Shown here: positions 12,641 through 26,083 of the stretch, piece after piece
Numbering within the stretch: the stretch's first letter is position 1
How the letters are laid out: every line of letters starts with the position of its first letter
NCBI GenBank assembly: GCA_964354405.1
Contig: CAYGZP010000001.1
Span: forward strand, 148,879-212,878
Length of the DNA: 64,000 bases
Source of the DNA: Candidatus Woesearchaeota archaeon
Lineage (GTDB): Archaea; Nanobdellota; Nanobdellia; Pacearchaeales; UBA284
Reading direction: 5' to 3'
Position numbers and translations under genes: made by a program
Notes under the pieces: generated by a model
Seen by the model: the letters and a program-made list of their open reading frames with translations, nothing else
What the model was told of the DNA's origin: nothing
The model's database searches: none

Positions 12641-13468
12641 TTACAAGGAAATCCCAGGAAGCAGATAGCTGATTATCTCTTGCTTGTCTTTTACGTCTTT
12701 CTTTAAACTGTCCCAGTCCTGAGCAGCTTGCATAAAATAAGCTGCATTGATTCCAGCCTGTGAACAAAGAACTAAAATATCATAAGCATCCGCATTAACT
12801 TTCAAGTTGTTCGCAAATTCTAAATTACCGATATGATAAACTGCATCTTCTCTAATTTCTTCTAAATGATTTAACAGTTCTTTAGGACTGCCTTTCTTGA
12901 ACTGGAGTCCTCTCTCGCTTGCATTCAAAACTCTTACTAATTTAGGCAATACAATATCTTCTGGGCTTGAAACCCTATAAGTTATTCCTTCTTTATTAGT
13001 CAATGCCTTTAATCTTGCATTTTCTAATTCTCTAATAACTCTTTTTTCACCACTGGCAAAATTTTTCAGATTTCTCCTTGGAAATTCGATTAAAATTTTA
13101 TCACCGTTTTTGCTTAGGCCCATGCAAAAAGTTTGATGGTGTTTTTTTGTATAAACTTCATATCCATTGTCAGAAAAGAACTCTCTTAATGGTTTGGAAA
13201 ATTCTTTGAAATTCTCATGATTTAATGGTCTGCCAACTAAAACATCAATATCTGCTGTAGGCCTTCTTTGCTCCTCTGGCAAATAACTTTGGCTTGCAAA
13301 ACCCCCTACAACCATATAAAGCCCCTTAGATAGATTAAAATGGTCTAAAGTGGATAATCCCTCTAATCCAAGTTGTATCATAGGATCAGTCAATGTCCTG
13401 AAACTATAACTCAACTTCTCTATTTTTCCATTAGTCAAATCATCTTCTGCTAGAGTTATCTTTTGCAT
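12641..13468 (-). CDS. Pol-beta-like nucleotidyltransferase (AbiEii-like)
   Basis: VVGGFA...RPTADIDVLV; downstream PEDIVLPKL and DAYDI. Confidence 0.75.
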   Translation of the reverse strand: MQKITLAEDDLTNGKIEKLSYSFRTLTDPMIQLGLEGLSTLDHFNLSKGLYMVVGGFASQSYLPEEQRRPTADIDVLVGRPLNHENFKEFSKPLREFFSDNGYEVYTKKHHQTFCMGLSKNGDKILIEFPRRNLKNFASGEKRVIRELENARLKALTNKEGITYRVSSPEDIVLPKLVRVLNASERGLQFKKGSPKELLNHLEEIREDAVYHIGNLEFANNLKVNADAYDILVLCSQAGINAAYFMQAAQDWDSLKKDVKDKQEIISYLLPGISL

Positions 13469-20266: not shown

Positions 20267-20350
20267 GCGGGAGTGCCGGAGTGGTCAAACGGGCATGGCT
20301 AAGGACCATGTGGCTTAGTGCCTACGCAGGTTCGATCCCTGTCTCCCGCA
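20267..20350 (+). tRNA. tRNA-Leu, anticodon AAG (A34)
   Basis: Cloverleaf with long variable arm and discriminator A; anticodon arm CATGG-CTAAGGA-CCATG; anticodon at 20301-20303. Confidence 0.9.
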
Positions 20351-23499: not shown

Positions 23500-23617
<118 letters not shown>

Positions 23618-23665
23618 ATAACAAATAAAGGGATATTTTTAAACCTTTTTGTTAGTCGTTAAAAC

Positions 23666-23680
23666 GAAAAATTTATATAA
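23666..23680 (+). promoter_or_regulatory. BRE/TATA promoter of the structured RNA
   Basis: CGAAAAATTTATATAA about 22 bp upstream of the terminal stem. Confidence 0.7.
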
Positions 23681-23700: not shown

Positions 23701-23804
23701 AGAGGAAAAGCGAGGATAGTCTAGGATTTACAGTTTAGCACTTCGGTGCTTGCTGACGGTCTTCTTCGGGAGATCATCTAGATCCTTTTCGCTTTTCTTA
23801 CTCT
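23701..23804 (+). ncRNA. Unannotated structured ncRNA with bulge-helix-bulge motif and two cUUCGg hairpins
   Basis: Terminal stem GAAAAGCG/CGCTTTTC, BHB, three-way junction, own promoter, pyrimidine-rich 3' end, no ORF. Confidence 0.75.
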
Positions 23805-23853
23805 TTAAACTTCTAAAAAAATTTATAAGCAATAATTATGTTTATTATCTTAA

Positions 23854-23937
23854 GCGGGAGTGCCGGAGTGGTCAAACGGGCATGGCTCAAGACCATGTGG
23901 CTTAGTGCCTACCAAGGTTCGATCCCTTGCTCCCGCA
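23854..23937 (+). tRNA. tRNA-Leu, anticodon CAA
   Basis: Cloverleaf; anticodon arm CATGG-CTCAAGA-CCATG. Confidence 0.95.
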
Positions 23938-25935: not shown

Positions 25936-26083
25936 GCTCCTGTAGCTCAGCTAGATAGAGCAACGCTCTCCTAAGCAATCTTTTGCGAAAAGATTGCATC
26001 AAAAGAATCTTTTTAGAAAAAAGATTCAATCAAAAAGAAACGGAGATAGGCGAAGGTCGCAGGTGCAAATCCTGCCAGGAGCG
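25936..26083 (+). tRNA. tRNA-Arg(CCT) with 74-nt intron at 37/38 (intron 25974-26047)
   Basis: Acceptor GCTCCTG/CAGGAGC; BHB central helix CTCC/GGAG with bulges TAA and ATA. Confidence 0.9.

Follow-up and report, generated by a model that had tools for sequence, protein, structure and literature searches.

A conserved small RNA gene of Pacearchaeota that carries a bulge-helix-bulge motif

What does a tiny archaeal genome encode between a 5S rRNA gene and a tRNA-Leu gene, in a segment that folds back on itself almost from end to end? The segment occupies positions 23701..23804 of the window, as we call the whole 64,000-nt stretch of DNA analysed here, and its host genome (G000) is 834 kb long and 98% complete. 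A preliminary description of the window had read it as an RNA with a bulge-helix-bulge (BHB), the motif cut by the archaeal splicing endonuclease EndA, and the stems, bulges, hairpins, BRE/TATA element, 5S rRNA and tRNA-Leu that it listed were all found in their places. Comparison with relatives confirmed that 23701..23804 holds a conserved gene for a small RNA, found in some tiny archaea (Pacearchaeota).

The gene lies on the plus strand. Its divergent neighbour is the 5S rRNA gene (23502..23614, minus strand; Rfam RF00001, 77.4 bits), and downstream, at 23822..23937 on the plus strand, sequence and tRNA/Rfam matches place a separate TATA box (23822-29) and tRNA-Leu(CAA) (23854-23937). A promoter is predicted at 23665..23679 (plus strand; BRE 23665-70, TATA 23672-79), while the 3' strand of the outer stem together with a U-rich run (23789..23807, plus strand) is a likely terminator; tails downstream of the RNA are pyrimidine-rich in most homologs. 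Because the neighbouring 5S and tRNA genes have a TATA spacing of 22-25 nt, the RNA is predicted to start near 23701-04. A strict BRE-TATA pattern 30-38 nt upstream of the helix was found in 20 of 40 homologs, in an A/T-rich background and as a count without a shuffle baseline, and in most of the remaining homologs an A/T box is visible by eye. The segment had also been called ORF-free, and so it is apart from a 51-codon TTG frame (23750-23905) that continues through the tRNA. Genes for SRP RNA, RNase P RNA, 16S and 23S are found at other loci of the same genome.

The RNA of the host genome has a minimum free energy of -41.6 kcal/mol (z -4.74), and none of 200 shuffles was equally stable. Rfam offered no known family for the segment, with no match at the gathering score and a best E of 0.45, a chance value, in a permissive scan. 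The fold begins with an outer, or processing, stem (23705..23713 paired with 23789-23797), followed inwards by the BHB and by an inner stem (23721..23725 paired with 23777-23781), which encloses two arms: arm B (23731..23755), which according to fold and alignment consists of a CAG/CUG lower helix and a C(UUCG)G hairpin, and arm C (23758..23775), a variable hairpin. The preliminary description had drawn the outer stem as 23705-12/23790-97, the inner stem as 23720-24/23778-82 and the hairpins as 23737-50 and 23758-75; the first hairpin is longer than drawn, as the CAG/CUG pairs extend the arm to 23731-23755.

Homologs were sought at several depths. BLAST against 101 related genomes returned, in addition to G000, 12 clear homologs and 4 weaker ones, and covariance models, built in three rounds, raised the number of genomes with the RNA from 21 to 25 and then to 26, out of 151 that belong to one archaeal order; it is always in single copy. 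By family, it is present in 12 of 23 genomes plus G000 (f1), 4 of 4 (f7), 4 of 5 (f8), 1 of 4 (f3) and 4 of 106 (f9), while the models found it in none of the 8 genomes of f2, f4, f5 and f6. Pattern scans added true matches from GTDB (12 of 35, titled Pacearchaeota in 8 cases, Woesearchaeota in 2 and archaeon in 2) and from metagenomes (13 of 41). After removal of 10 GTDB pattern matches that repeated sequences already counted, genomes, GTDB and metagenomes combined give 41 distinct homologs, one per genome. With strict filters, the RNA was not found in a phylum sample of 150 genomes (3 in the order) or in a class sample of 150 genomes (18 in the order). A single pattern match in a viral collection was, by eye, different from the RNA.

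The preliminary description had suggested looking for covarying homologs beside 5S and tRNA-Leu genes, and these were indeed found. In f1, f8, G025 and G122 the RNA adjoins the 5S gene, mostly upstream of a tRNA-Leu, and in f7 and G148 it is surrounded by unrelated genes. When 30 5S loci were taken from genomes without a first-round match, an unfiltered model found nothing in 29, and in at least several such loci the tRNA comes directly after the 5S promoter region; the loss of the RNA is thus real, at least at the 5S site. The gene is dispensable, being present in 26 of the 151 genomes of the order. The literature that we covered, which lies outside most subscription papers and supplements, holds no description of this RNA.

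In a 40-row alignment fitted to the model, one row of which is a reverse-strand artefact, 92.8% of 1300 cells were paired and 29 of 35 pairs showed two-sided change, counts of a kind that kinship inflates; none of 500 shuffles scored as high, and slid controls reached 35-46%. The two-sided changes fall on all nine pairs of the outer stem, whose sequence varies while its pairing stays, on four of the five pairs of the inner stem (98.5% of cells paired) and on all seven of arm C.

The register of the BHB was judged from an anchored count, made by a script tied to the stems and independent of the alignment, over 40 homologs (G025, which has no BHB, was excluded). The preliminary description had preferred the helix AGGA 23713-16/TCCT 23783-86, with bulges 23717-19 and 23787-89 and a 70-nt circle 23719-23788, and had mentioned a second register, shifted by one base, with bulges AGT and TTT. 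The pair unique to the preferred register is kept in 17 of 40 homologs, which speaks against it, whereas the four helix pairs of the shifted one are kept in 40, 40, 38 and 29 of 40; pairs unique to the minimum-energy fold of G000 are kept in 26, 38, 21 and 17. All four central-helix pairs show two-sided change, the closing outer pair is kept in 39 of 40, and these helix and closing pairs swap among G-C, A-U, C-G and U-A. These counts identify the conserved register as GGAT 23714-17/ATCC 23782-85 with bulges at 23718-20 and 23786-88, so that the 5' half of the BHB (23714..23720, plus strand) ends in the bulge AGT and the 3' half (23782..23788, plus strand) in the bulge TTT. The claim of a novel structured RNA whose BHB is conserved is thus borne out by homologs and covariation, and gene, fold and 3-4-3 geometry in the shifted register can all be regarded as shown by comparison.

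A census of the 41 homologs gave 27 with all four helix pairs and both flanks, 9 with three of the four pairs, 2 with a broken outer flank (L119, L007), 2 one base off (L048, L122) and 1 without a BHB (G025). The 5' bulge is AAT in 35 of 40 and AGT in 3, figures partly biased by pattern scans that used AATC, and the 3' bulge follows the pattern N-T-N, with T as the middle base in 38 of 40. Some caution is due with the fourth BHB pair, which is a G-A or C-A mismatch and thus unpaired in 11 of 40: a competing pair of the third bulge base with the same partner is possible in 39 of 40, so that the counts are matched just as well by a helix of 3 bp and two bulges of 3 nt. It is also worth noting that strict BHBs are not rare. 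A scan of the genome returned 14 matches, two of them the RNA itself, with 6 on contig C1, two local shuffles of which gave 1 and 2. Geometry alone is therefore insufficient, and it is conservation that makes this BHB real. Another strict BHB in the window (12773-12870) was dismissed as chance, as it lies within a 275-aa ORF and has a weak fold.

What the BHB encloses is quite plastic. Arm C is absent from four homologs (L055, L100, L103, L107), and arm B is present in two copies in L095, missing in G148 and swapped for other arms in G122; since homologs lose one or both of the C(UUCG)G hairpins, these are, on comparison of the sequences, not the essential core. Homologs of f8 carry extra inserted hairpins, and the predicted circles range from 36 to 96 nt. 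The minimal form, in G148, consists of the BHB and one hairpin (a 36-nt circle). G122, which was outside all training sets and was found by the last model only, carries different arms, without UUCG, on a BHB of perfect 3-4-3 geometry that includes a C-G swap. At the syntenic site of G025, on the other hand, arms B and C sit on a continuous stem with no BHB.

Does the host possess the machinery to process such an RNA? It encodes one EndA at C1 44290-44877 (196 aa, both Pfam domains), from which we infer a homotetramer, and one RtcB at C4 4601-5893; a Rnl3-type ligase was found in none of 5 genomes tested. Its eight tRNA introns form BHBs, which provide a standard within the same genome. One helix mismatch occurs in 4 of these 8, a U-first bulge on one strand in 3 and an AGT bulge in two, and in all 8 the bulge of the 3' strand begins with A and that of the 5' strand has a purine in second place. 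The preliminary description had worried that the UUU bulge is atypical; the U-first bulges and helix mismatches among the tRNA BHBs soften this worry. Neither BHB register is the minimum-energy fold in G000, both costing about 4 kcal/mol, and across the family forcing the BHB has a median cost of about 4.4 kcal/mol above the minimum; the cost in the eight tRNA introns is 0-5.1 kcal/mol.

Some features of these tRNA and rRNA genes may be recorded in their own right. A short repeat of palindromic sequence (AATCTTTT...AAAAGATT) makes up the 74-nt BHB intron of tRNA-Arg(CCT) (window 25936-26083); the introns of Ser-CGA and Leu-TAA are filled with it as well, it has many copies in the 16S-23S spacer (contig C2 of G000, about 2200-2800), and it appears that a small dispersed repeat enters tRNA introns. 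The 89-nt intron of tRNA-Ile(GAT) (C2 56925-57089) looks by eye like a multi-hairpin junction. An intron-containing tRNA on C1 (355019-355134) reads as Ile with a UAU anticodon, which is rare in archaea, and tRNA-Leu(AAG) (window 20267-20350) and tRNA-Pro(AGG) (C1 392679-392752) have A34 anticodons, unusual in archaea and also seen in L240. The flanks of 16S and 23S on C2 form long processing stems, in which a simple scan revealed no convincing canonical BHB.

The reading that we lean towards, and regard as moderately probable, is that of a stand-alone, single-copy BHB gene with its own promoter, whose transcript, once cleaved by EndA, is ligated by RtcB into a 68-nt circle, an exonuclease-proof, protein-binding RNA. 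Transcription would begin at about 23702 and end in the U-rich run near 23800, and the ends of the RNA would pair into outer stem, BHB and inner stem, as the covariation supports. By analogy with the tRNA introns of the genome, EndA would cut after the second base of each bulge (23719/23720 and 23787/23788), and RtcB would join 23787 to 23720. The predicted product (23720..23787, plus strand; -18.1 kcal/mol when folded as a circle) would be almost fully base-paired, with three hairpins. The outer stem might then serve for processing and be discarded, like that of pre-rRNA and of the Thermoproteus SRP RNA, and our best guess is that the circle may act by its shape, as a protein-binding RNA and not as a guide. 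A guide role is unlikely because the circle has almost no unpaired sequence and its longest match to the rRNAs of the genome is 9 nt. The conserved BHB pairs, the retention of the BHB in G122 and G148 and the presence of EndA and RtcB genes speak for a circle. Against it stand a BHB that is not the minimum-energy fold, the fourth-pair mismatch, a U-rich 3' bulge unlike those of the eight tRNA BHBs, the BHB-less G025, the offset (L048, L122) and broken-flank (L119, L007) homologs and the dispensability of the gene.

One may ask whether the BHB is not itself the working part. The RNA would then be a ligand or decoy of EndA, cut slowly or at the A-first bulge only and re-sealed, and would buffer or store splicing activity, much as 6S RNA buffers RNA polymerase. 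BHB and flanks are common to nearly all homologs while the arms come and go, the bulge sequence is kept beyond geometric need (AAT and the middle T), and the competing pairing could slow cleavage. However, arm B shows strong conservation, both inside families and across them, and is even duplicated in L095, G025 retains the arms without the BHB, and EndA is present in 143 of 151 genomes independently of the RNA; we consider a decoy unlikely.

Another possibility, which we find quite unlikely, is that the RNA is stable and linear, and that the double bulge, as a 3-bp helix with two 3-nt bulges, is no EndA substrate and binds another protein instead. It would account for the fact that the three central pairs and the competing U-A pair are kept in 38-40 of 40 homologs while the fourth BHB pair is kept in 29, and G025, without a BHB, is in line with it. 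Yet wherever the partner base is G, as in 5 homologs, it pairs with the fourth base of the helix (3 C-G, 2 U-G), L051 retains the BHB pair only, a helix mismatch is also found in half of the tRNA BHBs of the genome, and the U-A pair would close a new loop of the product.

That the RNA is part of a known one, permuted or split, be it a permuted tRNA, an rRNA fragment or a domain of SRP or RNase P RNA, is very improbable and largely refuted: its place among 5S and tRNA genes, the terminal BHBs used by permuted tRNAs (in the accessible part of PMC4090602), a 23S helix 25 that is about 46 nt short and an SRP RNA without helix 6 may all hint at it, but the 23S 3' end is intact, helix 25 is short regardless of the RNA, SRP RNA spans 260-272 nt in 81 of 81 matches, RNase P RNA is present in 136 of 151 genomes, and the would-be anticodon varies and lacks Y32/U33/R37.

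Tests against individual RNA classes were run on 39 predicted circles and agree with the preliminary description, which had seen no tRNA, SRP helix-8, RNase P P4 or hammerhead core. The SRP54-binding motif of SRP helix 8 (also without an Rfam match) and the RNase P P4 consensus were found in 0 of 39, the genome having separate genes for both RNAs, and CUGANGA and GAAA, the two hammerhead elements, occur together in 0 of 39. Box C is likewise absent from all 39 (CUGA is present in 25, but base-paired), and the Nop5/Nop domain of the box C/D machinery was found in none of five genomes (G000, G010, G034, G045, G124). As for box H/ACA, by eye the stem is followed by no ANA tail and loops are of 5 nt or less, and each of 5 genomes has a gene of the Cbf5/TruB family; Lsm is present in the 5 genomes tested, and Ro60 (TROVE), the partner of Y RNA, in 0 of 5. 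A T-loop motif occurs in 2 of 39 circles. ARAGORN called a tRNA in 1 of 39 doubled circles by default and, at a relaxed score, in 10 of 39, whose anticodons are inconsistent, as compared with 4 of 39 reversed controls. The presence of RNase P RNA and EndA does not track that of the RNA (151 genomes), and neither does that of Lsm and Cbf5 (5 genomes).

Three candidate functions in trans or as fragments were rejected. A 4.5S-like fragment of the 23S 3' end is contradicted by the intact end. Helix 25 in trans fails as this helix is short in all 19 loci parsed, out of 30 with or without the RNA, and helix 6 of SRP RNA in trans fails as short SRP RNA is order-wide and SRP19 absent with or without the RNA (0 of 5 genomes tested). 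Of interest in themselves, helix 25 (L138, about 330-430) falls about 46 nt short of the Rfam archaeal consensus in G000, and similarly in all 19 parsed relatives, and the SRP RNA (L031 1501-1764) lacks helix 6 within its 260-272 nt span, which suggests an order-wide loss. The RNase P RNA (L032 1501-1911) is 411 nt long, with several insertions and a 36-position stretch of the model cut to 5 nt. The 23S match breaks off near position 2035 of its model, where C2 ends (about 1-220), and resumes on C5 (about 18300), which suggests an intron near that position.

If a circle is indeed formed, the processing route is a known one, and it is the RNA family and the host-less BHB gene that appear to be new. 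A bolder proposal, possible but on balance doubtful, is that such a host-less intron gene represents a new class of archaeal ncRNA whose sole purpose is to be handled by the tRNA-splicing machinery, either a dedicated small circular RNA whose UUCG-capped arms are interchangeable or the first natural decoy that regulates EndA. That a gene with its own predicted promoter keeps a BHB across several reduced-genome families, its interior being remodelled, suggests selection for the circle itself or for the contact with EndA itself. If true, organisms very poor in stable RNAs would gain a further RNA class, and the tRNA-splicing machinery a wider role. Natural controls are available in the 36-nt minimal form of G148 and the BHB-less form of G025, and the 68-nt circle has a named junction.

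As far as the accessible parts of the published accounts go, archaeal BHB circles are by-products or rescues of known RNAs, namely tRNA introns, pre-rRNA, permuted tRNA and permuted SRP RNA (for circular pre-rRNAs and tRNA introns see PMC12558985, PMC4090602, PMC6379350, PMC5829648 and bioRxiv 10.64898/2026.03.23.713588), and the RNA described here is a member of none of these families. The circular C/D RNAs of Nanoarchaeum, in what could be consulted of PMC3491384, are also different. Archaeal tRNA introns share with it the 3-4-3 geometry, a similar energy cost and mismatch rate and a freely varying interior, but our RNA has no host tRNA (its flanks would ligate to a plain hairpin), has its own promoter- and terminator-like signals and keeps conserved inner arms. 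Like the circular pre-16S and pre-23S rRNAs, in the portions seen of bioRxiv 10.64898/2026.03.23.713588 and PMC12558985, it keeps its outer stem in pairing and not in sequence, around an interior predicted to be circular; unlike them, its interior is not rRNA and its distribution is patchy. With the permuted tRNAs of Cyanidioschyzon merolae, going by part of PMC4090602, it would share a terminal BHB and a circular intermediate, whereas it has only two inner arms, no T-loop and no constant anticodon. The permuted SRP RNA of Thermoproteus tenax, whose leader/trailer BHB, by the part of PMC4731332 at hand, is cut by recombinant EndA in vitro and whose circles are seen in reads, is, as predicted for our RNA, a separately transcribed non-tRNA RNA with a terminal BHB. 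Our RNA differs from it in having no helix-8 motif, in its predicted product of about 68 nt as against about 300, and in belonging to a genome that has an SRP RNA of its own.
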